NCBI GenBank assembly: GCA_964555245.1
Contig: CAZKRI010000032.1
Location: 93,239 to 157,238 of the forward strand
Length of the DNA stretch: 64,000 nt
Direction: 5' to 3'
Source: an uncultured Myxococcales bacterium
GTDB taxonomy: Bacteria; Desulfobacterota; Binatia; UBA1149; SPBQ01
Shown: positions 8,020 to 51,115 of the stretch, in pieces
Numbering within the stretch: position 1 is the stretch's first letter
How the letters are laid out: each line of letters opens with the position of its first letter
Program-made: the position numbers and the translations under genes
Notes under the pieces: model-generated
The model's database searches: none
Told to the model about the DNA's origin: nothing
Seen by the model: the letters and a program-made list of their open reading frames with translations, nothing else

Positions 8020-8859
8020 CTATCCGAAGTACGCCGCGGCGAAGTCGCGTAGGCCGTCGCGCGCCTCCGGCGACCGTCGCCAGGGTGCGACGATCAGCCG
8101 GTCGACACCGGCTCGTCGCCACAGCTCAATCTCATCGCGGCCGCGCACATCCGCCATCACCGTGACCGTGAAACACTCGGCAAGCCGGCCAGCCTGGGCA
8201 CGCAACTCGCGCAGCCTAGCCACCGGTCGCGCCACGCTCGCCGGGGTGTGTTGAAGTCCGATCCAGCCGTCGCCCGCGACCGCCGCACGGCGCAGCGCGG
8301 CTTCGGACTCCCCGCCGACGTGAAGCGGCGGCCAGGGTTTTTGCGTCGGCTTGGGCTCGAACACCACCGGTTCGAACGTGAAAAACTCCCCGTGGTGCTC
8401 TACCACCGGCTCGCTCCAGAGCCGCTTGCAGATGGCCAGCGCCTCATCCAACCGCCGCCCGCGGCTCGCGAAGTCGACGCCGGCGGCCCGGCACTCGCCG
8501 GCAAGCCAGCCGGCGCCGATGCCGATCTCCGCACGGCCCCCCGAAACGATGTCGAGAGTCTGCACGGCCCGCGCAGCGACGAAGGGATGCCTCAAGCCCA
8601 GCAGGTAGACGTGAGTCCCGAGCCGGACCGTGCGGGTCTGTCCTGCCAGGAAGGAAAGATACGCAAAACAGTCGAAGACCGGGGTGGTCGCGGCCACGGG
8701 AGGCTCGTTCAGGCCCGGGTGCGGTGAGCCCGACAGCGTCTCGGGGAAGATCAGGTGCTCAGGCAGCCACACCGATTCGAAACCGAGCCGCTCGGCCTCG
8801 ATGGCGACCGCCAGATGGAAGGCGGGGTTGAGCCGTCCGAGCGCGACGCCGAACCTCAT
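8020..8859 (-). CDS. Luciferase-like monooxygenase (LLM) / F420-dependent oxidoreductase family protein.
   Basis: MRFGVALGRLNPAFHLAVAIEAERLGFESVWLPEHL is a typical LLM N-terminus. TIM-barrel-like family pattern. Confidence 0.75.
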   Translation of the reverse strand: MRFGVALGRLNPAFHLAVAIEAERLGFESVWLPEHLIFPETLSGSPHPGLNEPPVAATTPVFDCFAYLSFLAGQTRTVRLGTHVYLLGLRHPFVAARAVQTLDIVSGGRAEIGIGAGWLAGECRAAGVDFASRGRRLDEALAICKRLWSEPVVEHHGEFFTFEPVVFEPKPTQKPWPPLHVGGESEAALRRAAVAGDGWIGLQHTPASVARPVARLRELRAQAGRLAECFTVTVMADVRGRDEIELWRRAGVDRLIVAPWRRSPEARDGLRDFAAAYFG

Positions 8860-8862
8860 CGG

Positions 8863-9639
8863 TCACAGAGTGTAGCGGCCGTCCTCGGTCAGGCGCCATC
8901 CGCCGGCGGCGGCCGTGCCACCGTCCACGTGCAGCGTCGTCCCGGTCACGAACAGCGATAGATCGGAGGCGAGGAACAGCGCCGCGCCCGCGACGTGGTT
9001 GGGGTGCCCCTTGCGTGCCAGAGGCGCACGCACCTGCGGATCTCCGATTCCCGGCGTGGGGATCAGGTCGGGCGCGATGGCATTGACGCGGATCCGCCGC
9101 GCGCCGAGCTCCAGAGCAAGGGTCCTGGTCAGGTTCTCGACCGCGGCCTTCATCGCCGCATAGATCGCGTATCCCGGGGCACCGCGCCCGGCTTCGATCG
9201 AGCTGATGTTGAGGATCGAGCCGCCGGTATCGGGAAACAGCGGGAGCGTCGCGCGGATGCAGTTCGTCACGCTCGTGAAGTTCTCCGCAATGAGGGCGTC
9301 CTGCGCATGGGCACTGAGCTCCGCGAACGCGGCGTGAAAACCCCCTCCGGCGTTGTTGACGAGCACGTCGACCCGGCCGGCTTCCGCACCAACCCGGGCG
9401 ACGAACGCGCCCACGGCCTCGCCGTCGCGCACGTCAAGGCGCCCGGTCCATGCCCGCCGGCCCAGGGCCCGCACCGAGCGCGCGGTCGTCTCGAGGTTCA
9501 CCTCGTCGCGGTCGCAGATCGCCAGGTCGGCGCCGAAGCTGGCCAAGGTCAGTGCGATCGCCTCGCCGATCCCGGCGGCGGCCCCGGTAACGAGCGCGAC
9601 GCGGCCTTCCAGCGAGACGGTAGCAGGACCGAGCGGCAC
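8863..9639 (-). CDS. Short-chain dehydrogenase/reductase (SDR).
   Basis: VTGAAAGIGEAIAL Rossmann motif, NNAG, and catalytic YAAMKAAV. Confidence 0.85.
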   Translation of the reverse strand: MPLGPATVSLEGRVALVTGAAAGIGEAIALTLASFGADLAICDRDEVNLETTARSVRALGRRAWTGRLDVRDGEAVGAFVARVGAEAGRVDVLVNNAGGGFHAAFAELSAHAQDALIAENFTSVTNCIRATLPLFPDTGGSILNISSIEAGRGAPGYAIYAAMKAAVENLTRTLALELGARRIRVNAIAPDLIPTPGIGDPQVRAPLARKGHPNHVAGAALFLASDLSLFVTGTTLHVDGGTAAAGGWRLTEDGRYTL

Positions 9640-9710: not shown

Positions 9711-10292
9711 GTGGACGTTCGCGAGCGAAGGGTCCTGGTCAGAACCGCCGCCGTGCATGAGAATGCCGCCGTGAGCTGGCTGGCACACGCGGCCGGAACC
9801 GGCGCGACGTTTGCGCAGGTGTTCGGCCTTTGCCCAGAGCTTCATCGTGGGTTCGAGCGTTTTTACGGATTGTTCTGGCAACGGCGGCTCGTGGATCCGG
9901 TGGTACTCGAGCTGTGCCGGTTGCAGGTGGCCGCGCTGCTCGGCTGCACCGTCGAGCGCGAGGTGCGCTACCGCGCCGCCGTCGAAGCCGGGTTGACGGA
10001 AGCCAAGGTTGCCGAGCTTTCCCGCTGGCGAACCAGCCCGAGCTTCAGCGAACTGGAGCGGGCTTGCTTGGGTTTCGCGCAGCGGTTCGTCACCGACGTG
10101 CACGGGCTTACCGATGAGGACGTCGCCGCTGTCTCTCGTCTGCTCGGCGAACCGGGAACGGTGGCGCTCGCCGAGGCGATCGCCTTGTTCGAGGGCTTCT
10201 GCCGCTTCCGCCTCGCGCTGGACGTCCAGAGCGAGGTCCAGGGGACCGTTCCCACTCCGACGGCCGAGCCCACGGGTAGGCTCGAACGATGA
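9711..10292 (+). CDS. Carboxymuconolactone decarboxylase (CMD/AhpD-like) family protein. Start uncertain (in-frame GTGs downstream of the ATG at 9711).
   Basis: AhpD-like core (…LELCRLQVAALLGCTVEREV…). Ends in ATGA overlap with the next gene. Confidence 0.55.
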   Translation: MDVRERRVLVRTAAVHENAAVSWLAHAAGTGATFAQVFGLCPELHRGFERFYGLFWQRRLVDPVVLELCRLQVAALLGCTVEREVRYRAAVEAGLTEAKVAELSRWRTSPSFSELERACLGFAQRFVTDVHGLTDEDVAAVSRLLGEPGTVALAEAIALFEGFCRFRLALDVQSEVQGTVPTPTAEPTGRLER

Positions 10293-10822
10293 CCAAGCGT
10301 CCGCGCAGCCCGCGTATCCGCCCCCCGCAGCAAGCGGCCGCCGATCCCATTGCCGGCAGTGCGCTCAGCCACCAGCCCGAAACCCTACGGGCGTTCCTCG
10401 ATCTCTACGCAACGCTGTGGGAGGGAGGCTCGGTGGATGCCGCGACCAAGGAGATGGTTCGGCTGCGCAACGCGCAGATCACCGACTGCGGCTATTGAAA
10501 GAACGTTCGCTTCGCCGTGGCGAAGGAGCAGCTTGTCGACGAGTCCGCGGTCGCCCAGATCCAAAATCACCGCGCGTCGACCGTGCTCACCGCACGCGAC
10601 AAGGCGCTGCTCGCTTACGTGGACCTGCTGCTAACGATACCTGGTGCGATCGACGAGCGGGTGACCGCGCAGCTGCTGACGCACTTCTCTCCCGCGCAGA
10701 TCGTCGAGCTGACCGCAGCCGCGGCCGTGTTCCTCGGGTTCTCCAAGCTCGCCATCGCCCTGGGTCCGGTACCGGACGATCTGCCCCGGATGCTCATGCC
10801 GCTGCCCGCTCGCCCCGACTGA
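10289..10822 (+). CDS. AhpD/CMD-family protein read through an in-frame TGA (10496..10498) at the second Cys position of CxxC (…RLRNAQITDCGY-U-KNVRFAVAKEQ…). Candidate selenoprotein; alternatively a pseudogene.
   Basis: ORFs 10289..10498 and 10517..10822 are in the same frame, separated only by the TGA. Family motif C-x-x-C. Stem-loop cuucgc/cgug/gcgaag at 10510..10525 begins 11 nt 3' of the UGA. Confidence 0.55.
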
Positions 10823-13192: not shown

Positions 13193-13723
13193 ATGACCCG
13201 GCGGACTTTCATCGAGCGATCCTTGTTGCTAGGGAGCCTGTGGTTGGTGGGCCCGGCGTGTGCCCGCAGCGAGCGGACCACCAGTGCCACCGAGCCGTCA
13301 TCCGACATCGAGCGCTTGGCCAAGCCACGGGAGGAATGGCGGCGGCTCCTGGGACCGCAGCGCTACGCGGTGCTCTTCGAGGAGGACACCGAACCGCCCT
13401 TCTCGAGCCCGCTCAACGATGAGAAGCGGGCGGGCACCTTCGTCTGCGCGGCGTGCTATCTGCCGCTGTTCGCCTCGGATGCGAAGTTCGACAGCGGCAC
13501 GGGTTGGCCCAGCTTCACACGGCCGATCGAGGGGCACGTCGGCCTCGAGGACGATTTCAAACTCCTGCTGCGCCGCACCGAATACCACTGCATCCGCTGC
13601 GGCGGGCACCAGGGGCACGTCTTCGAGGACGGGCCGCCCCCCACCGGGCAGCGTTGGTGCAACAACGGCTTGGCGCTCGAGTTCGTCCCCGCCGAACTAC
13701 CCCTGCCTCGGCTACGCACATGA
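13193..13723 (+). CDS. msrB: Peptide-methionine (R)-S-oxide reductase MsrB with Tat-type signal (RRTFIERS).
   Basis: CAACYLPLF…GWPSF…HCIRCGGHQGHVFEDGP…RWCNNG are classic MsrB motifs. ATGA overlap with msrA. Confidence 0.85.
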   Translation: MTRRTFIERSLLLGSLWLVGPACARSERTTSATEPSSDIERLAKPREEWRRLLGPQRYAVLFEEDTEPPFSSPLNDEKRAGTFVCAACYLPLFASDAKFDSGTGWPSFTRPIEGHVGLEDDFKLLLRRTEYHCIRCGGHQGHVFEDGPPPTGQRWCNNGLALEFVPAELPLPRLRT

Positions 13724-14358
13724 AGGCCGTGACTCCCATGATCGCTCTGGCCGTGACGCTGGCAGGCGCGACGGCTACGATGGCGCAGACAACCCAACCG
13801 GAGCAGGCCATACCGATGACAGAACAAAGCCATCTCAAGAAGGCAACGTTCGCTGGCGGCTGTTTTTGGTGCATGGAACCGCCGTTCGACAAGCTCGACG
13901 GCGTGGTTTCGACGGTATCCGGCTACACCGGCGGACGCACCGAGCATCCGTCCTACGAGCAGGTCAGCGCCGGCGGCACCGGCCACGCCGAGGCGGTGGA
14001 GATCCAGTTCGATCCGGCCAAGATTACCTACGCGCGCCTGCTCGACGTGTTCTGGCGCAACATCGATCCAACGACCCTCAACCGCCAGTTCTGCGACATC
14101 GGCGACCAGTACCGCACCGCGATCTTCTATCATGACGATGAACAGAAGCGCCTAGCCGAAGAATCCAAGCGCGCTCTGGAGCAACCCGATCGTCTCGGAA
14201 CGAAGATCGTTACCCAGATCGTTTCTGCCTCGGCGTTCTATCCGGCCGAGGACTACCACCAGGACTACTCGACGAAGAATCCGCTGCGCTACAAGTACTA
14301 TCGCTTCTCGTGCGGCCGCGACCAGCGGCTCGAGGAGCTCTGGGGCGACGACTCATGA
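13720..14358 (+). CDS. msrA: Peptide-methionine (S)-S-oxide reductase MsrA with signal peptide.
   Basis: GGCFWCMEPPFDKLDGVVSTVSGYTGG and HQDY motifs. Confidence 0.9.
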   Translation: MKAVTPMIALAVTLAGATATMAQTTQPEQAIPMTEQSHLKKATFAGGCFWCMEPPFDKLDGVVSTVSGYTGGRTEHPSYEQVSAGGTGHAEAVEIQFDPAKITYARLLDVFWRNIDPTTLNRQFCDIGDQYRTAIFYHDDEQKRLAEESKRALEQPDRLGTKIVTQIVSASAFYPAEDYHQDYSTKNPLRYKYYRFSCGRDQRLEELWGDDS

Positions 14359-20513: not shown

Positions 20514-21122
20514 TCACCTGGAGCTAGCCTCGCGTCGTAGCGGGACGCCGGCCGCAGAGGCGCGCGCTGTCTCCTCGTCGAGGGTCAAACCGAAGCCGTC
20601 GGCAAGGCGGGTCAGGTAGTTGAAGATGCCGACGATGTGTCCGACCTCCAAACAGGCGCGGTCGTCGAAACCGAGCGCACGTAACGGTTGCCAGTCGGAC
20701 TCGACCATCTTGGTCGGGGTGGCGCTGAGCTTCTCGGCAACTTCGCACAGGGCGCGGTCGCGCGTGGACAGGCTCCCCAGCGCGCGCCAGCGCCGGGCCT
20801 TGATCGCGTCCACCAGCTCCGCGTCCCCGTGCTCGACACGCAGAAACTCTGCGTGGGACTGCGTTCAATAGAAACAGTCCTGGGCGGCTGCGGTTACTGC
20901 CGCGACCATCTCCCGTTCGCGCCGGTCGAGTGATCCCGGAGCAAACATGATCTGTGCAAACAGCAAGCCGAAAGCCGGACCGAGATCGCGGTGCGCCATG
21001 ATCAGACCGGCCATCGTCGGCAAAAAGCCGAAGTCGTAGGGATGCCCGGACGGCATCGCAGCGCGCAGCTCGGTCTGGTCCGGGAGCGCGACCCATGCGG
21101 GTGGTGGTAATGTTTGGCTCAT
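20514..21122 (-). CDS. Peroxidase-related / AhpD-like CMD-family protein read through an in-frame TGA (20865..20867) inside C-F-Y-U-T-Q-S-H, i.e. CxxUxxxH where the family has CxxCxxxH. Candidate selenoprotein. Start ATG 21122 (MSQTLPPP), preceded by GGAGGA.
   Basis: ORFs 20865..21149 and 20514..20813 are in the same frame, separated by 17 sense codons after the TGA. Perfect stem-loop cacgcag/aguuu/cugcgug (20855..20837) begins 10 nt 3' of the UGA. Confidence 0.6.
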
Positions 21123-21292
21123 GGTGTTCGTCCTCCTCGATCGCAGCACCGCAAGCGGTGCTGCGGTGCCGACTCTACCTCTACGTCCCGAGCAGGTCGA
21201 CGGATCATCGGGTTGCGCTTGGCAAACCTCCCTCCCCCCGTGCTAAGGAAAGCGCCGCCGGGCCGCCGCGGGTGTCCGGCAAGGAGGCTTCC

Positions 21293-22981: not shown

Positions 22982-23443
22982 GTGTCCGACGTGCGCGAGA
23001 CCGAACCGCCGTCCGCCCGGCTACGAGAGCTGATCTTCAAAGCCAACGAAGAGACCTTTCGCGCCTGGAACGCGCACGACGCCGCGGCCGTGGCTGCAGT
23101 GTTCGCACCAGAGGCCGTGGTGGTCGACGTGCTGACCGGCGAAACCATCACCGGACGCGAGGCGATCCGGACGCGTACGGCTTCGCTGTTCGAGGCTTTT
23201 CCCGACCTGTCGCTGACCCGCGTCATGCTGCTCATCGATACCGCGACCAACGCCGATCAATGGGTCATGCGAGGCACGCACCGCGGCCCGTTCCTCGGGA
23301 TTCCACCCAGCGGCCGTAGATTCGAGGTGCGCGGCGCAACCTTCAGCGAGTTCGATCAGGCCGGCCTGGTGGTGCGCGACACCAACTACGTCGACGTCGC
23401 GGCTTTGCTCGCGCAGATCAGCCCCGCGCGGGCTGAAGGCTGA
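22982..23443 (+). CDS. SnoaL-like / NTF2-fold protein (ester cyclase-like), GTG start.
   Basis: Family-typical pattern …WNAHDAAAVAAVFAPEAVVVD…, about 150 aa. Confidence 0.6.
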   Translation: MSDVRETEPPSARLRELIFKANEETFRAWNAHDAAAVAAVFAPEAVVVDVLTGETITGREAIRTRTASLFEAFPDLSLTRVMLLIDTATNADQWVMRGTHRGPFLGIPPSGRRFEVRGATFSEFDQAGLVVRDTNYVDVAALLAQISPARAEG

Positions 23444-28824: not shown

Positions 28825-29586
28825 TCAGATGCTCATCATCCCCCGGCGTGGGACGTTGGTTCCGTAGGTTTCGCTCGCGATCGGGGCGCCCATCTCGGCC
28901 AAGACCGTGCGCTGTTGCGCGAGCGGAGTGCGCATCGAGCGATCCTCGAACGGCCTGAGCCGCGCGAATTCATCGAGCGCCAGAACACGGTCGACGTATC
29001 CCGCAGTTCGGGGCCAGCGAGCCGATTCGATCGAGAAGCCTGCGAATGCGGCGTTGCGGAAGAACGTCGCGATCGAGATGTCGGCAATCGAAGGCGCGCC
29101 GAACAAGAATCCGTCCGGCGGCGCGATGCTCTCGAGGTAGTCGAGCACACTTGGGATTTCTTCCCGCCGCGCGCGCTCGACGACGGCCTCGTCGGTCGGC
29201 TCCCCCCAGACGAACGGCCGGATGACGAGCTGATTGAAGAAACGCCAGATCAGCACCTCTCCCATGCGCGTGTCGGCGAACTCCTCCAACCAGCGGGCCT
29301 TCGCCCGGTCCACCACGTCGATCGGATAGAGCGCGGGCTCTGGATAACGGTCCTCGAGGTACTGACAGATGACCGAGGAGTCGGCGAGCGTGACCCGGTC
29401 GTCCACGAGTACGGGAACCCGGCGCACCGGGCTCAGCTTGGCGAATCGGTCATCGCCCAGAAACGGAACGATCGGATCGATGCGGTACGGTATGCCCTTG
29501 AAGTGCAGGACGACCAAGACTTTGCGGACGTAGGGGGAGACGTACGATCCAATGATCGTGACCGGGGGTCGCGCGACCTCAGGCAT
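28825..29586 (-). CDS. Glutathione S-transferase family protein.
   Basis: Thioredoxin-like N-domain (VSPYVRKVLVVLHFKGIPY…RRVPVLVDD) and helical C-domain. Confidence 0.75.
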   Translation of the reverse strand: MPEVARPPVTIIGSYVSPYVRKVLVVLHFKGIPYRIDPIVPFLGDDRFAKLSPVRRVPVLVDDRVTLADSSVICQYLEDRYPEPALYPIDVVDRAKARWLEEFADTRMGEVLIWRFFNQLVIRPFVWGEPTDEAVVERARREEIPSVLDYLESIAPPDGFLFGAPSIADISIATFFRNAAFAGFSIESARWPRTAGYVDRVLALDEFARLRPFEDRSMRTPLAQQRTVLAEMGAPIASETYGTNVPRRGMMSI

Positions 29587-43332: not shown

Positions 43333-43713
43333 TCACATGTTGAGTTGGAGGCGGGCGGCCTCGGTCATCATGTCGGGGGTCCATGGTGGGTCCCAGACCA
43401 GGTCGATGGCGCAGTCGCTCACCGCATGGATGCAGCGGACGGCGCGCTCGACCATGCCGGGCATCGAGCCGGCCACGGGGCACATCGGCGTGGTGAGCGT
43501 CATCTTGATGGCGACCTTGCTGCCCTCGTCGATCCTGAGGTCGTAGACCAGCCCGAGATCGTAGATGTTGACGGGAATCTCCGGGTCGTAGACGGTGCGC
43601 AAGGCATCGACGACCATCTCCTCGAGCTTCTCGGGGGTGAGCTTGACGTTTTCGGTGGCGGCGGGCGGGCCCGGTGCCGTTGGCTGAGTTGGTTCGGTCG
43701 TTGGTTCTTTCAT
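43333..43713 (-). CDS. sufT: DUF59/MIP18-family Fe-S assembly protein (SufT-like). Start at MKEPTTEP (ATG 43713) with GGAGG RBS.
   Basis: …VYDPEIPVNIYDLGLVYDL…TLTTPMCPVAGSM… is the DUF59 core. GGAGG 7 nt upstream of the ATG. Confidence 0.75.
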   Translation of the reverse strand: MKEPTTEPTQPTAPGPPAATENVKLTPEKLEEMVVDALRTVYDPEIPVNIYDLGLVYDLRIDEGSKVAIKMTLTTPMCPVAGSMPGMVERAVRCIHAVSDCAIDLVWDPPWTPDMMTEAARLQLNM

Positions 43714-43745
43714 GTGACTACCTCCGATGACTAGACGCTCCGAGG

Positions 43746-44210
43746 TCACTCCGTCACCGCGACGTTCTCACCGCGGCCGTCGATTGCGTTGCGCAAGGTG
43801 TGCCAGGCCAAGGTGGCGCACTTGACCCGCAGCGGATACTGGCGGACGCCCTCGAAGACCGCGAGCTTGCCGATCTCGACCGGCTCGCCGGGCTCCGCGC
43901 CGGCATCCTTTTGGCCGGTCACGGTCTCGCGCAAGCGACGGAACAAGGCGCGCGCGTAGCCGACGGTCTTGCCTTTGACGGCCTCGGTCATGAGCGACGC
44001 GGACGCGGTAGAAATCGCGCAACCCGCGCCTTCGAAGCGAATGTCCTTGACGGTCTCGCCCTCGACGTCGAGGTAGAGTCGAATCTTGTCGCCACAGAGC
44101 GGATTGTAACCTTCGGCACGGTGGGTGGCGCGCTCGAGCTTGCCGTAGTTCTTGGGCTGCCGGCTGTGATCGAGAATGGTCTCTTGGTAAAGCTCGCGCA
44201 GCTCGGACAT
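43746..44210 (-). CDS. sufU: SufU/IscU-like Fe-S cluster scaffold / sulfur acceptor.
   Basis: NifU-N-like domain with Cys ligands (NPLCGDKIRL…GAGCAISTASASL…VKCATLAW). Confidence 0.85.
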   Translation of the reverse strand: MSELRELYQETILDHSRQPKNYGKLERATHRAEGYNPLCGDKIRLYLDVEGETVKDIRFEGAGCAISTASASLMTEAVKGKTVGYARALFRRLRETVTGQKDAGAEPGEPVEIGKLAVFEGVRQYPLRVKCATLAWHTLRNAIDGRGENVAVTE

Positions 44211-45481
44211 CAGAGCAGCACCTTACGCACGTGATCGAGGCCGGCCACGAGCCGGTCGACGTCCTCTTTCGTGTTGTAGATCGCGAACGAAGCGCGCGCC
44301 GTGGCCGGCACGCCGAACCGTTGCATCACCGGCTGCGCGCAGTGGTGGCCGGTGCGAACCGCGATTCCTTCGTGGTCCAGGATCGTTCCGATGTCATGCG
44401 GGTGGCAGCCGTCGATCACGAAGGAGTGGACAGCGGCTTTGTCGGCGGCAGTCCCGATCAATCGCAGCCCCCGCACGGTAGCGAGGGCCGGCTCCGCATA
44501 CTCGAGCAACTCGCGCTCGTAGGCGGTGACCGCATTGATGTCCAGGCCGATCAGGTAGTCGACGGCTGCACCCAGCCCGATCGCCCCGGCGATATCCGGC
44601 GTCCCCGCCTCGAACTTGTGCGGAATCTCGTTGTAGGTCGTGCGTTCGAAGGTCACCGACAGGATCATCTCGCCCCCACCCTGCCAGGGCGGCATCGCTT
44701 CGAGCAGGCTTGCCTTGGCGTAGAGCGCGCCGATGCCGGTGGGTCCGTAGGCCTTGTGGGCGGAGAGCGCGTAGAAGTCGCAGTCGAGATCCTGGACGTC
44801 CACCCGCATGTGCGGAACGGCCTGCGCGCCATCGACCAGAACGGGCACGCCGTGGGCGTGGGCCATGCGGACGATCTCCTTGACCGGGTTGACGGTGCCC
44901 AACGCGTTGGAGACATGCACCAGAGCGGCGATCTTCGTGCGCGGCGACAAGAGCTTGGCGAGCTCATCGAGGATTAGCTCGCCGCGGTCGTTGATCGGCG
45001 CTACTCGAAGCCGCGCACCGGTCTGCTCGCAGAGGATCTGCCACGGCACGATGTTGGAGTGATGCTCCATGGCCGTGATCAGCACCTCGTCGCCCGAGCC
45101 CACGTGGCTGCGCCCGTAACTCTGGGCGACCAGATTGATCGCCTCGGTGGTGCCGCGCACGAAGACGATCTCGCGAATGTCCCGCGCGTTCAGGTACATC
45201 TTGACCTTGCCGCGAGCTCGCTCATACGCGAACGTCGCGCGCTCGGCCAGCGAGTGGACGCCGCGGTGAACGTTGGCGTTGTCCTGCTCGTAGTAGCTCA
45301 GGATTGTATCGAGCACCTGGCGCGGCTTCTGTGAAGTGGCTGCGCTGTCCAAGTAGACCAGGGGCTTGCCGTGAACCTCCTGCTGGAGGATCGGAAACTC
45401 GTCTCGCACGTTGCGCGCCACACCGAATCCGGCGAGCGACTCGGTGGCCTTGCGGGCGAGCTGCTGAGCGCGCGGCATCAT
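44210..45481 (-). CDS. sufS: Cysteine desulfurase SufS (PLP-dependent, class V aminotransferase family). Start set to ATG 45481, right after the sufD stop; the long upstream extension in the ORF track is rejected.
   Basis: …LVYLDSAATSQKP…RGVHSLAERATFAYE…HVSNALGTVNPV…SAHKAYGPTGIGALY… motifs. Operon context. Confidence 0.9.
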   Translation of the reverse strand: MMPRAQQLARKATESLAGFGVARNVRDEFPILQQEVHGKPLVYLDSAATSQKPRQVLDTILSYYEQDNANVHRGVHSLAERATFAYERARGKVKMYLNARDIREIVFVRGTTEAINLVAQSYGRSHVGSGDEVLITAMEHHSNIVPWQILCEQTGARLRVAPINDRGELILDELAKLLSPRTKIAALVHVSNALGTVNPVKEIVRMAHAHGVPVLVDGAQAVPHMRVDVQDLDCDFYALSAHKAYGPTGIGALYAKASLLEAMPPWQGGGEMILSVTFERTTYNEIPHKFEAGTPDIAGAIGLGAAVDYLIGLDINAVTAYERELLEYAEPALATVRGLRLIGTAADKAAVHSFVIDGCHPHDIGTILDHEGIAVRTGHHCAQPVMQRFGVPATARASFAIYNTKEDVDRLVAGLDHVRKVLL

Positions 45482-45482
45482 C

Positions 45483-46838
45483 TCAGGGCTTTCTGCCCGC
45501 AATGGGCTCATGTTGGCTCGGCGCGAGCCCGGAAAGATCGCGTTCGAGCGCGCTGCGCAGTTCGGCCGGTTGGAGCGTGGCGAGCACCTCTGCCGCAAAA
45601 CCGTAGGTGAGCAGGGCGCGAGCGCTCGCTTGGTCCAGACCACGCTGGCGCAGGTAGAACATGGCGTCTTCGTCCAGATGTCCGACGGTCGCGCCGTGGG
45701 TGCAACGCACATCATCGGCGTGGATCTCGAGCTGCGGCCGCGTCTCCACCAGGGCGCCTTCGCCTAGCAGCAGATTCTTGTTCGTCTGCTCGGCGCTCAC
45801 CTGCTGGGCGTCACGGCGCACCTTGACGCTGCCCGTGAACACACCGCGGGCCTGGCCATCGAGAATGCCTTTGTACAGCTCGCGACTGGTCGTTCGAGCC
45901 ACCGCGTGGTCGATCACGGTGTGATGATCGACGTGCTGGCGTCCGCCGATCATGTAGAGCCCATACAGCGAACAGCTTGCCCCGTGTCCAGATAGCACGG
46001 TCGCGATCTCCGTCCGCGACAGCGCGGCGCCGAACGCGACCGCATGGGACGCGAACGTGCTGCCGGCCTCCTGAAACACCTGAATGCGATGGACGTGGAA
46101 CGCGCGCGCATCCTCTTTCTGAATCTTGCAGTGCGAAAGCGTCGCGTCGACGCCGAGCGCGATCTCGGTGACGGCGTTGGTCAGGTAAGGATGCTGGGCG
46201 TCACCCAGATAGTGTTCGACGACGGCGGCACGCGCTCCTGGCTCCACCAAGATGAGATTCCGGAGATGCGCAAGCGTCGGCTCGGACGTCGCCTCGGCGT
46301 AGAAGACGAGGTGGATGGGGTTGATGCAGCTCGTTGCGCGAGGCACCCGGACGATCGCGCCATCTTCAAAGAACGCCGTGTTGAGCGCGGCGAACCCATG
46401 CACACCGTAGTCGAGCTGGCGTGCGAGCGTCCCCGACAGACCCCCATCCTCCGCTTCGATGCGGGGGCGAATGCTGCCCGCTAGATCTGAGAGCGCTGGC
46501 TCGCCGGATCGCGATAGCTCGGCCATGAAGTGGCCGTTGACGAAGACCAAAACGGTCGCGGCCTTGTCCGCCGGGATCGAGGCGACGGCGCGAGCCACAG
46601 CCGCCCGGTCGAAGCTCAGTCCGGAGCGCGCGACCCGCCGGAACGGGATCTGAAGAAGCGAGCCGACGCTGGTGTACTTCCAGTCCTCGTTCTTGGATCC
46701 AGGGAAACCGATCTCGGCGAACCGCCCGATCGCCGAACGACGCAGATCGCCAATCCAGCCTGCGCCACCGGCCAGCTCACCGCGGGATCTTTCGAACTCC
46801 GCCAGAAAGCTCTCTCGTGCCTGTACGGTCGTGGCCAT
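45483..46838 (-). CDS. sufD: Fe-S cluster assembly protein SufD.
   Basis: SufB/SufD-family beta-helix C-terminal region. Position between sufC and sufS. Confidence 0.85.
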   Translation of the reverse strand: MATTVQARESFLAEFERSRGELAGGAGWIGDLRRSAIGRFAEIGFPGSKNEDWKYTSVGSLLQIPFRRVARSGLSFDRAAVARAVASIPADKAATVLVFVNGHFMAELSRSGEPALSDLAGSIRPRIEAEDGGLSGTLARQLDYGVHGFAALNTAFFEDGAIVRVPRATSCINPIHLVFYAEATSEPTLAHLRNLILVEPGARAAVVEHYLGDAQHPYLTNAVTEIALGVDATLSHCKIQKEDARAFHVHRIQVFQEAGSTFASHAVAFGAALSRTEIATVLSGHGASCSLYGLYMIGGRQHVDHHTVIDHAVARTTSRELYKGILDGQARGVFTGSVKVRRDAQQVSAEQTNKNLLLGEGALVETRPQLEIHADDVRCTHGATVGHLDEDAMFYLRQRGLDQASARALLTYGFAAEVLATLQPAELRSALERDLSGLAPSQHEPIAGRKP

Positions 46839-46847
46839 CTTGGGGGT

Positions 46848-47607
46848 TCAGGCCGGAGTCGCCTGCGTCTCGATCCAGCCGTAACCCCGCTGCTCGACCT
46901 CGCGCGCCAGCTCGGGACCGCCCGAGCGGACGATGCGCCCAGCGGCGAGCACGTGGGTGTGATCGGGAACCACATGGTCGAGCAAGCGCTGGTAGTGGGT
47001 GATCACGATCATCGCGCGCTGGGGAGAGCGTAGCGCGTTGATGCCGCGGGCGACGGTTTGCAGCGCGTCGATGTCGAGGCCCGAATCGGTCTCGTCCAGA
47101 ATCGCCAGCCGCGGCTCCAGCATGGTCATCTGGAAAATCTCGTTGCGCTTCTTCTCTCCGCCCGAGAAGCCGTCGTTGAGCGGCCGGTTGAGCAGATCTT
47201 CCTTCATGTCGACCAGGCTCAACTTCTCGCGAGCCAACTTGAGGAAGTCCATCGCGTCCAATTCGGGACGGCCGCCGTGACGGCGGACGGCGTTGAGAGC
47301 TTCCTTGAGGAAGTAGGCCGTGCTCACGCCGGGAATCTCAACGGGGTACTGGAACGAGAGGAACACGCCCTCGCGCGCGCGCTCTTCGGGTGGCATCGCC
47401 AACAGATCACGCCCCTCGAACAGAACCTGGCCGGCCGTCACCGTAAACGCTTCGCGCCCGGTCAACACTCCGGCCAAGGTGCTCTTGCCCGAGGCGTTAG
47501 GCCCCATGACCGCGTGGACCTCGCCGGCGCGCACCGTCAGATCGATCCCTCGCAGGATCGGCTTGCCCTCGACTTGGGCGTGAAGGTTGCGAATCTCGAG
47601 CATCACC

Positions 47608-47615
<8 letters not shown>
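46848..47615 (-). CDS. sufC: Fe-S cluster assembly ATPase SufC.
   Basis: [44 protein letters not shown] signature LSGGEKKR, Walker [11 protein letters not shown]. Confidence 0.9.
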
Positions 47616-49068
<1,453 letters not shown>

Positions 49069-49081
49069 GCTCGCTACCTCC

Positions 49082-49570
49082 CTACCCCTCACGCACGACC
49101 GGCGCGCCGGTTTGCGTCCCGCGGGCCATCTCGGTGATCCACGCCAGCGGTGGCTGCGCACCGGCCGCCAGATCGGCCACCGTGATGCTCGAAAGCGCGG
49201 CGTGCAGCAGAGCGTTGAGGCTGGTCCAGACCGCTCGGATCGAACAGTTGGGTGTGTGAACGCAATCTCTGAGCGCGCCCGGATGCGCCTCGCAGAAGGA
49301 GTCGGGGAACAACGGGCCGCCCAGGATGGTCAGGGCATCCCAGAGCGTGACGTCTCCAGCGGGCCGGCTCAGCTGATAGCCACCCGCCGCTCCACGCGTG
49401 CTGCTCACCAGGCCGCCTTGCCGCAGGATCCGCATCAGCTTGGCGACGTACTCGGGACCCAGGCCCTCGGCGGTCGCGATCTCCTGGATCCGCATCGGCT
49501 GAGCCACCTCGTGACGCGCGAGCTGGAGCAGGCAGCGAAGACCGTACTCTTCCTGGGATGAGAAATGCAC
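49082..49570 (-). CDS. Rrf2-family transcriptional regulator (IscR/SufR-like) with three C-terminal Cys (candidate Fe-S ligands). Probable leaderless GTG start at 49570.
   Basis: [13 protein letters not shown]…[10 protein letters not shown] Rrf2 wHTH signature. Cys cluster [19 protein letters not shown] sigma70-like promoter sits 7 nt upstream of the GTG. Confidence 0.75.
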
Positions 49571-49742: not shown

Positions 49743-50468
49743 GTGCCCGATTTCCAGTACCCGCAATTCTGCGCGGTGGCTCGAGCGGCCGAGGTCGTCG
49801 GTGAGCGCTGGACCCTGCTGCTACTGCGGGAGCTGTTCTTCGGCCCGCAACGCTTCAGCGACCTGCGCCGCCAGTTGAGTCAGGTGAGCCCGAGCGTACT
49901 CAGCGAGCGTCTGGGGTTGCTCGAAGCGCAGGGGATCATCCGTAAGCGGGAGCTCGAGCCTCCGGCGGCCGCGACCGTCTACGAGCTTACCGAGGACGGC
50001 CACGCTTTCGGTCCCGCGCTCATCGCGCTGGCGCGTTGGGGGATGCGCTTCCTGCTACCGGCTCGGCCCGGCGATCAGATCGACGTCGGGCGCCTCGCGT
50101 TCATGCTTCAGCAATTCGCGCGCGCTTCCGCCTCCCCCGCCCTTTCCTGTGCTCTGCATGTGACCGACCCGGGCAAGTCGCGCCGGATACTCCTGGCCGG
50201 CGGCGCGACAGGAACTCAGGTCACCGAGATGAGCGCTACCACCGCCGCACCCGCGGTCGACGTCACGGTGGAAGCGAGCGCCTTGGACTTGGTCGGAGTC
50301 CTGATGCAAACGATCGATCTAGCGGTCGCCGAGCGCGAGGGGCGCGTTCGGATCAGTGGCGACCGAGCAAAACTAGCCGAGCTGCCCCAACTCTTCGAGA
50401 TCGAACCATCCCATTCCCGAACGATCTCGTTGTCCCCCCAACCCAACCAACAAGGAGAAACGTCATGA
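49743..50468 (+). CDS. HxlR-family winged-helix transcriptional regulator with a C-terminal extra domain.
   Basis: CAVARAAEVVGERWTLLLLRELFFGPQRFSDLRRQL HxlR signature. Divergent from rrf2. Confidence 0.7.
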   Translation: MPDFQYPQFCAVARAAEVVGERWTLLLLRELFFGPQRFSDLRRQLSQVSPSVLSERLGLLEAQGIIRKRELEPPAAATVYELTEDGHAFGPALIALARWGMRFLLPARPGDQIDVGRLAFMLQQFARASASPALSCALHVTDPGKSRRILLAGGATGTQVTEMSATTAAPAVDVTVEASALDLVGVLMQTIDLAVAEREGRVRISGDRAKLAELPQLFEIEPSHSRTISLSPQPNQQGETS

Positions 50469-51115
50469 GCACGTTACACGGAGTCAATGCCTCACCGTTC
50501 GTTCGCAAGGCGCGCATCGCGCTGAAGGAGAAGGGCATCGCCTACACCCTCAATCCCGTCTTTCCGATCAACGTGAGCGAAGAGTACCGCAAGATGAGCC
50601 CGCTCGGGAAGGTCCCCTGCTACACGACGCCGAAAGGTGACAACATCCCGGACTCCTCCGTGATCATCGCCTACCTCGAGCGCGTCCAGCCCAAGCCGCC
50701 TCTGTATCCGGCCGACGCGGTCGAGTTCGCCCGTGCCCTTTACTTCGAAGAGTACGGTGATTCGGGGCTCATGGGACAGATCGGTCCGGTGTTCTTCAAC
50801 CGCATCGTCGGCCCCAAGTTCATGAACAAGCCGGCCGATGAGGCCGCGATCAAGCTGTCGCTGGAGACCGGGCTGCCGCCGTTGCTCGCCTACCTCAACG
50901 AGCAGACCAAGGACAAGCGGTTCCTCGTGGGCGACGCCTTCAGTGTGGCCGACATCGGAATCACCTCGCCGTTCATCAATCTCATGCACGCTGGCGAGGA
51001 CGTCGACGCCAAGAAGTACCCGCACCTGGCTCGATACCTGGCCAACATGTTCGAGCGGCCCTCGATCAAGGAGCTGATCGACGAAGAGAAGGCCCTGTTC
51101 CCACGCGCGGCTTGA
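50465..51115 (+). CDS. Glutathione S-transferase. Start at MSTLHGV (ATG 50465, AAGGAG RBS, ATGA overlap with hxlR-like gene).
   Basis: GST N-domain (ASPFVRKARIALKEKGIAY…VPCYTT) and C-domain (FSVADIGITSPF). Confidence 0.8.
   Translation: MSTLHGVNASPFVRKARIALKEKGIAYTLNPVFPINVSEEYRKMSPLGKVPCYTTPKGDNIPDSSVIIAYLERVQPKPPLYPADAVEFARALYFEEYGDSGLMGQIGPVFFNRIVGPKFMNKPADEAAIKLSLETGLPPLLAYLNEQTKDKRFLVGDAFSVADIGITSPFINLMHAGEDVDAKKYPHLARYLANMFERPSIKELIDEEKALFPRAA

Follow-up and report, generated by a model that had tools for sequence, protein, structure and literature searches.

The window analysed here is a single stretch of DNA of 64,000 nucleotides, and its minus strand very probably encodes an AhpD-like selenoprotein at 20514..21122, with UGA86 of this gene read as selenocysteine (Sec). 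The membership of the product in its protein family, the alignment of the Sec position with Cys, the conservation of the TGA and the selection acting on the hairpin behind it are direct observations. Coordinates are collected in Table 1.

Table 1. Positions, in window coordinates, of the predicted selenoprotein genes and their elements
Feature	Position	Strand	Remarks
Predicted AhpD-like selenoprotein gene	20514..21122	-	202 codons including Sec86; terminal TGA stop at 20516..20514
In-frame UGA, predicted Sec codon (U86)	20865..20867	-	TGA in homologous loci; aligned to the second Cys of CxxC
Redox motif C83-F-Y-U86-T-Q-S-H90	20853..20876	-	C83, Y85 and H90 invariant (alignment A2)
Shine-Dalgarno sequence GGAGGA	21131..21136	-	8 nt 5' of the ATG at 21122..21120
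Predicted SECIS hairpin	20837..20855	-	7-bp stem CACGCAG/CUGCGUG, loop AGUUU; 9-nt spacer after the UGA; synonymous-site conservation
Predicted second, distinct CMD-family selenoprotein gene	10289..10822	+	177 codons; U70 at the TGA 10496..10498; motif DCGY-U-KNVRF
SECIS-like hairpin of the second gene	10505..10529	+	Core CUUCGC-CGUG-GCGAAG at 10510..10525, 11 nt 3' of the TGA; lower stem GUUC/GAGC

The frame 21122..20514 is interrupted only once, by the TGA at 20867..20865, and the first-pass annotation of the window was right in describing two ORFs of one frame that are split by a single TGA. The translation of the gene around this point is ...AAVTAAAQDCFY*TQSHAEFLRVEHGDAELVDAIKARRW..., where the asterisk marks the TGA. 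The sequence AAQDCFY-(TGA)-TQSHAEFLRVEH corresponds to C83-x-x-U86-x-x-x-H90, which agrees with the earlier proposal that the TGA takes the place of the second Cys of a C-x-x-C-x-x-x-H motif with its His at +4. On both sides of the TGA, GC content by codon position is highest at position 3 and lowest at position 2. In most homologues the equivalent ATG is accompanied by an AGGAGG-like site, and the Sec codon is found 85-93 codons 3' of that ATG. Besides C83 and H90, alignment A2 has an invariant E71, located 12 residues ahead of C83.

Profile searches were run on the protein with Cys put in at the TGA. The product scored 113.1 bits (cutoff 81.8) over residues 30-179 with the NCBIfam model TIGR01926 (“peroxidase-related enzyme”), matched the Pfam family CMD (PF02627) with an E-value of 1e-9, and passed the cutoff of the AhpD core domain TIGR00778 (ahpD_dom; 31.2 bits vs 27.8), while the AhpD equivalog model gave no match. 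With TIGR01926, P0001 and P0003, which are Cys homologues, reach 109 and 117 bits. As judged from these profiles, the predicted product is an AhpD-like protein of the carboxymuconolactone-decarboxylase fold and of the subfamily TIGR01926. Its nearest solved structures, 6k40 (AhpD, E 1.6e-23), 2oyo, 2pfx, 2prr and 3c1l, are all Cys-containing AhpD-like or “uncharacterized peroxidase-related” proteins of about 190-200 aa, which align over residues 29-185 and share the pattern ERE...CxYCxxSH. The printed alignments place their C-x-Y-C-x-x-S-H onto C-F-Y-U-T-Q-S-H and keep the upstream E-R-E motif; these proteins differ from the product studied here in having Cys at the Sec site and no UGA or SECIS. 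The comparison with Cys homologues that had been recommended earlier thus puts the TGA on the second Cys of C-x-Y-C-x-x-S-H, and the solved AhpD-like structures agree.

The literal C-F-Y-U-T motif and a C-terminal CMD domain are shared with NF041238 (AhpD_rel_CFYUT (seleno)protein), which corresponds to “hypothetical protein 1” of the Sargasso Sea (seleno)protein set. However, the proteins of that model have 357 aa and two domains, in contrast to 202 aa and one domain here. The product falls outside NF041238 because its match is limited to the C-terminal CMD domain of the model (profile positions 216-344 only) and stays below the cutoff (61.5 bits vs 175).

To compare the Sec codon, we scanned a single genome of each species; 261 genomes had relatives, and the aligned codon was read in the best 80 loci. 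Neither of the two search patterns could have favoured TGA, since one lay 3' of the site and the other demanded Cys or Trp there. The codon is TGA in 79 of these 80 loci and TGC in the remaining one (L016), and the tblastn matches cover both halves of the protein (residues 1-200). Identity of the gene product to these 80 genome-encoded relatives is 62-72%. According to the record titles, the best 80 loci come from Binatia, Chloroflexota (Dehalococcoidia and Thermomicrobiales), Actinomycetota, Gemmatimonadota, Acidobacteriota, Gammaproteobacteria, SAR324 and others; synteny between the window and the 80 loci was not found. Together with the conservation of the hairpin described below, we consider this comparative evidence decisive.

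The public protein collection gives a complementary picture. Its full-length homologues include proteins with Cys at the site (P0001, P0003, P0005 and others, with DCxYC) and some with “W”, and in addition more than 100 gene calls of the family are shortened to 111-130 aa and start a few codons past the site. For P0004 (L166:117-713) the called “W” is TGA in the DNA. The locus studied here is a clean example of this recurring annotation error, in which family members are cut short or given Trp at the Sec site. The Logan records show two ORFs, one of 85 aa and one of 99 aa, in place of this gene; since these public calls split it in two, the locus is mis-annotated, in line with the earlier remark that it appears unannotated.

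Some ORFs among the public entries (P0010, P0019, P0022, P0024) run from the C-terminal half of a first copy into the N-terminal half of a second, tandem copy and end exactly in ...DCHY; such ORFs joining tandem copies imply two adjacent selenoprotein genes. Another entry, P0002, derives from locus L167 (ENA ERZ27253378 contig, 521-523) and has a genuine GGA (Gly) at the Sec codon, one T-to-G step from TGA. The hairpin of L167 is almost intact, with CGC replacing CGU. Either this substitution is recent, and inactivating or neutral, or the GGA is an assembly variant.

The two short ORFs returned by gene callers, together with the mutability of the site seen in the relative L167, could be taken to mean that the TGA arose by nonsense mutation or through an error in sequencing or assembly, and that the locus is a pseudogene or really has TGC/TGT. 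We give this explanation hardly any credence. The window is matched at 100% identity by Logan assemblies of three separate runs, over 9.5 kb (SRR9952632), 11.2 kb (SRR9952630) and 1.0 kb (SRR15166932). The TGA at 20865..20867 is contained in the assemblies of SRR9952630 and SRR15166932, and the TGA of the second gene in that of SRR9952632. Because the separate-run assemblies are identical through the TGA, it is not a sequencing error, and the same codon occurs in nearly all of the species-level homologues (79 of the best 80). Moreover, both halves of the gene are conserved as protein and the hairpin is conserved as RNA.

It is highly improbable, too, that the UGA is a true stop which leaves an 85-aa N-terminal fragment and an internally started C-terminal fragment, maybe the parts of a split enzyme. 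The 17 codons from the TGA to the first possible start encode TQSHAEFLRVE.., where conservation within the family is highest and where the catalytic His lies, and a stop at the UGA would delete the residue at the catalytic position. This explanation draws on an in-frame GTG at 20813 and on homologues with ATG directly after the TGA (U-M-Q-S-H), but such an ATG occurs in just 2 of 80 Sec forms. It would also leave the conservation of the hairpin unexplained.

This hairpin is another line of evidence for the reading of UGA86 as Sec. The perfect stem-loop reported by the first-pass annotation to begin 10 nt 3' of the UGA is present at 20855..20837; its first base is the 10th nucleotide after the UGA, the distance from the UGA to the loop is 16 nt, and the loop exposes G and U. 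All seven pairs are kept in 77 of 80 Sec-form sequences and the loop AGUUU in 76. At the level of codons, the 80 Sec forms use CAC for His (79/80), GCA (65) or GCG (15) for Ala, which gives an A-U or G-U pair, GAG for Glu (80/80), UUU for Phe (76/80), CUG for Leu (80/80) and CGU for Arg (77/80). The control codons, which encode equally conserved amino acids, vary freely: Tyr-1 is TAC in 40 sequences and TAT in 39, Glu+11 is GAA in 42 and GAG in 38, and Leu+17 is encoded by at least four codons. At Arg positions outside the hairpin CGU makes up at most 15%, and synonymous codon entropy drops at codons +4..+9. Three of the codons used in the hairpin, GCA, UUU and CGU, are rare in the window, with 8%, 13% and 12% of their synonymous sets, respectively. 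In the Cys form L016 the corresponding sequence is GCC...UUC CUG CGG, and only five of the seven pairs are left.

The significance of the hairpin comes from this comparison of homologues and not from its fold energy. Against shuffled sequences its z-score is -0.61, i.e., it is no more stable than expected by chance in sequence of 66% GC, and among synonymous recodings that follow the codon usage of the window, 28% equal or exceed it in stability. The RNAalifold covariation test found no double changes (0), because the hairpin is nearly invariant. Overall, the hairpin looks as a SECIS element under selection should look, and its SECIS role, predicted earlier from position and shape, is supported by selection at synonymous sites and by loss of the hairpin in one Cys form.

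In the SECIS of E. coli fdhF, the hairpin lies inside the coding sequence and has G and U in an apical loop roughly 18-21 nt after the UGA. The hairpin described here resembles it in being placed within the coding region shortly 3' of the UGA and in carrying G and U in the apical loop. It differs in its perfect stem of 7 bp with no bulged U, its 9-nt spacer and its AGUUU loop, and its role as a SECIS is a prediction.

The window contains another gene of the CMD family with an in-frame TGA (Table 1), in which Arg instead of His is found at +4. We ran a full HMMER search from a Cys homologue and aligned the hits, which fell into three groups: Cys forms that have DCG[YF]C[KR]NVRF, numerous N-terminal fragments that end in ...DCGY and numerous C-terminal fragments beginning with MRF or VRF. 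In metagenome contigs this family has TGA in 30 loci and TGC/TGT in 44. With the window and L084 added there are 32 Sec forms, and with L085 added 45 Cys forms, for counts of the hairpin. All six core pairs of CUUCGC/GCGA[AG]G with an NGUN loop are present in 30 of the 32 Sec forms vs none of the 45 Cys forms. At codon +9 the Sec forms have AGG or AAG, and the Cys forms mostly CGC or CGG. By these comparisons 10289..10822 is predicted to be a second, independent selenoprotein gene; the paralog that the first-pass annotation had noticed for its like substitution proves to be a true member of a Sec/Cys family and to have a hairpin of its own. With this second gene, decoding of UGA as Sec by the organism becomes more likely.

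None of the NCBIfam models reaches its cutoff for the family of the second gene. One can suggest, tentatively and as a combined reading that we consider rather doubtful, that (a) the second gene represents a CMD selenoprotein subfamily outside the curated models and (b) the 19-nt SECIS of the AhpD-like gene is a portable cassette. Such a subfamily may be characterised by DCGY-U-[KR]N[VI]RF without His at +4, by a SECIS dependent on AGG/AAG at codon +9 and by a split pair with a CMD partner that lacks CxxC. The 19-nt SECIS has an invariant sequence in at least eight lineages that bear different labels; it may be carried along when the gene is transferred horizontally, and it may be held fixed by the overlapping codons of the active-site sequence HAEFLR.

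The second gene is one half of a two-gene pair, since the CMD-family gene 9711..10292 (+) overlaps its start by ATGA. In other organisms both halves of this pair (9711..10822) are fused into a two-domain protein of 338-357 aa. Beside the pair, 8020..9639 (-) encodes a luciferase-like monooxygenase and a short-chain dehydrogenase. There is a weak association here, as no other families adjoin the AhpD-like gene elsewhere as often as these two (80 loci).

When all frames of the window were scanned for in-frame TGA codons flanked on either side by a coding signal, the second CMD gene was recovered, and the TGA at 20865..20867 fell just under the GC3 cutoff of the scan. Its remaining hits came from antisense frames or adjacent genes.

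A Pfam scan of 40 called genes, ARAGORN and Rfam detected none of selA, selB, selD and tRNA-Sec within the 64-kb window. The 96-nt “tRNA-Ala(ggc)” called by ARAGORN at 22986..23081 (-) was considered as a tRNA-Sec or allo-tRNA. It has no Rfam tRNA match, lies antisense inside the SnoaL-like gene 22982..23443 and is most likely a false positive.

The lack of Sec machinery in the window, together with the W that some public gene calls have at the site, would fit a reading of the UGA as a standard amino acid (Trp, Gly or Cys) through reassignment, a near-cognate tRNA or a Cys-charged tRNA. This is nevertheless quite unlikely. The “W” is an artefact of gene calling with an alternative code on TGA, as the DNA of P0004 demonstrates, and TGA is not reassigned because it is the main stop codon of the window, ending 35 of the 48 genes called. 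The homologues belong to many phyla with the standard code. In addition, a conserved hairpin with a GU loop about 16-19 nt after the UGA is the signature of SelB-dependent decoding, and the hairpins of both families are lost from their Cys forms.

Under the preferred reading of UGA86 as Sec, decoding would follow the canonical bacterial pathway. The hairpin 9 nt past UGA86 would act as a bacterial SECIS and recruit SelB-GTP-Sec-tRNA(Sec); Sec would be inserted at UGA86 by this SelB-dependent mechanism, and translation would go on rather than terminate.

For catalysis the closest guide is AhpD of M. tuberculosis (Rv2429), which has the same C-x-x-C-x-x-x-H motif and a Glu 12 residues ahead of the first Cys. 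We take E71, C83, U86 and H90 to correspond to its Glu118, Cys130, Cys133 and His137. The second Cys of that enzyme is said, in work attributed to Nunn in 2002 and Koshkin in 2003, to be the nucleophile. By analogy, U86, which replaces the second Cys of C-x-x-C-x-x-x-H, may serve as the nucleophile and C83 as its resolving partner, with H90 and the invariant E71 probably forming a proton relay. Such a protein would work as a selenol/thiol oxidoreductase, which may either detoxify hydroperoxides or re-reduce an oxidised partner. The likeness to the M. tuberculosis enzyme does not extend to the equivalog model or to the surroundings of the gene, as no ahpC adjoins it here. To our knowledge, the TIGR01926 subfamily has no demonstrated AhpC-reductase role.

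The statement made earlier that AhpD-like selenoproteins are an established class agrees with the literature. In 2005, Zhang et al. reported the AhpD-like CxxU proteins, with 27 sequences from the Sargasso Sea, as a family of selenoproteins that was then new (PMC1088965). In the Global Ocean Sampling survey, “AhpD-like 1” comprised 299 Sec sequences, the fourth-highest selenoprotein count (PMC2398784), and the table of a 2026 review gives “AhpD-like protein, CxxU” as a selenoprotein family under TIGR01926 (PMC13188914). The gene studied here shares with this family (COG2128/TIGR01926) a score above the TIGR01926 cutoff, a CxxU motif with Sec at the second Cys position, the existence of Cys homologues and a SECIS-like hairpin directly 3' with G in the apical loop. 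By every one of these sequence-level criteria it is predicted to be an ordinary member of a family known since 2005, with no difference in kind, being an unannotated representative from an uncultured organism.

Our understanding of selenoprotein biology is unchanged by this locus, and no new mechanism is indicated. The corrected annotation adds two predicted selenoproteins to an uncultured GC-rich organism, which implies that this organism can use selenium. For re-annotation, the Sec-vs-Cys contrasts of both families provide compact, testable definitions of their SECIS elements.

The neighbours of the AhpD-like gene in the window encode a TPR protein, a cyclase-AAA-TPR regulator and a SnoaL protein. 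An AhpC/peroxiredoxin or another conserved partner adjoins neither the gene here nor its relatives across the 80 loci. Luciferase-like monooxygenases are neighbours in 19 of these loci and short-chain dehydrogenases in 14, which is too inconsistent to interpret.

The divergent intergenic region 5' of the AhpD-like gene contains a perfect palindrome of 11+11 nt, CGCAGCACCGC-TT-GCGGTGCTGCG, at 21142..21165, 20-43 nt ahead of the start codon. It is not terminator-like because no T-run follows it, and its possible roles are those of an operator site or a 5'-UTR hairpin; conservation of the palindrome was sought 5' of the 80 homologues and not found.

The window is also rich in genes for redox and stress functions, at 13193..14358 (+), 28825..29586 (-), 50465..51115 (+) and 43333..49570 (-). 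MsrB and a signal-peptide-bearing MsrA, with GCFWC and RCGGH, are both Cys forms; in addition there are two GST-like genes, and a suf Fe-S cluster operon is complete and has an Rrf2 regulator.
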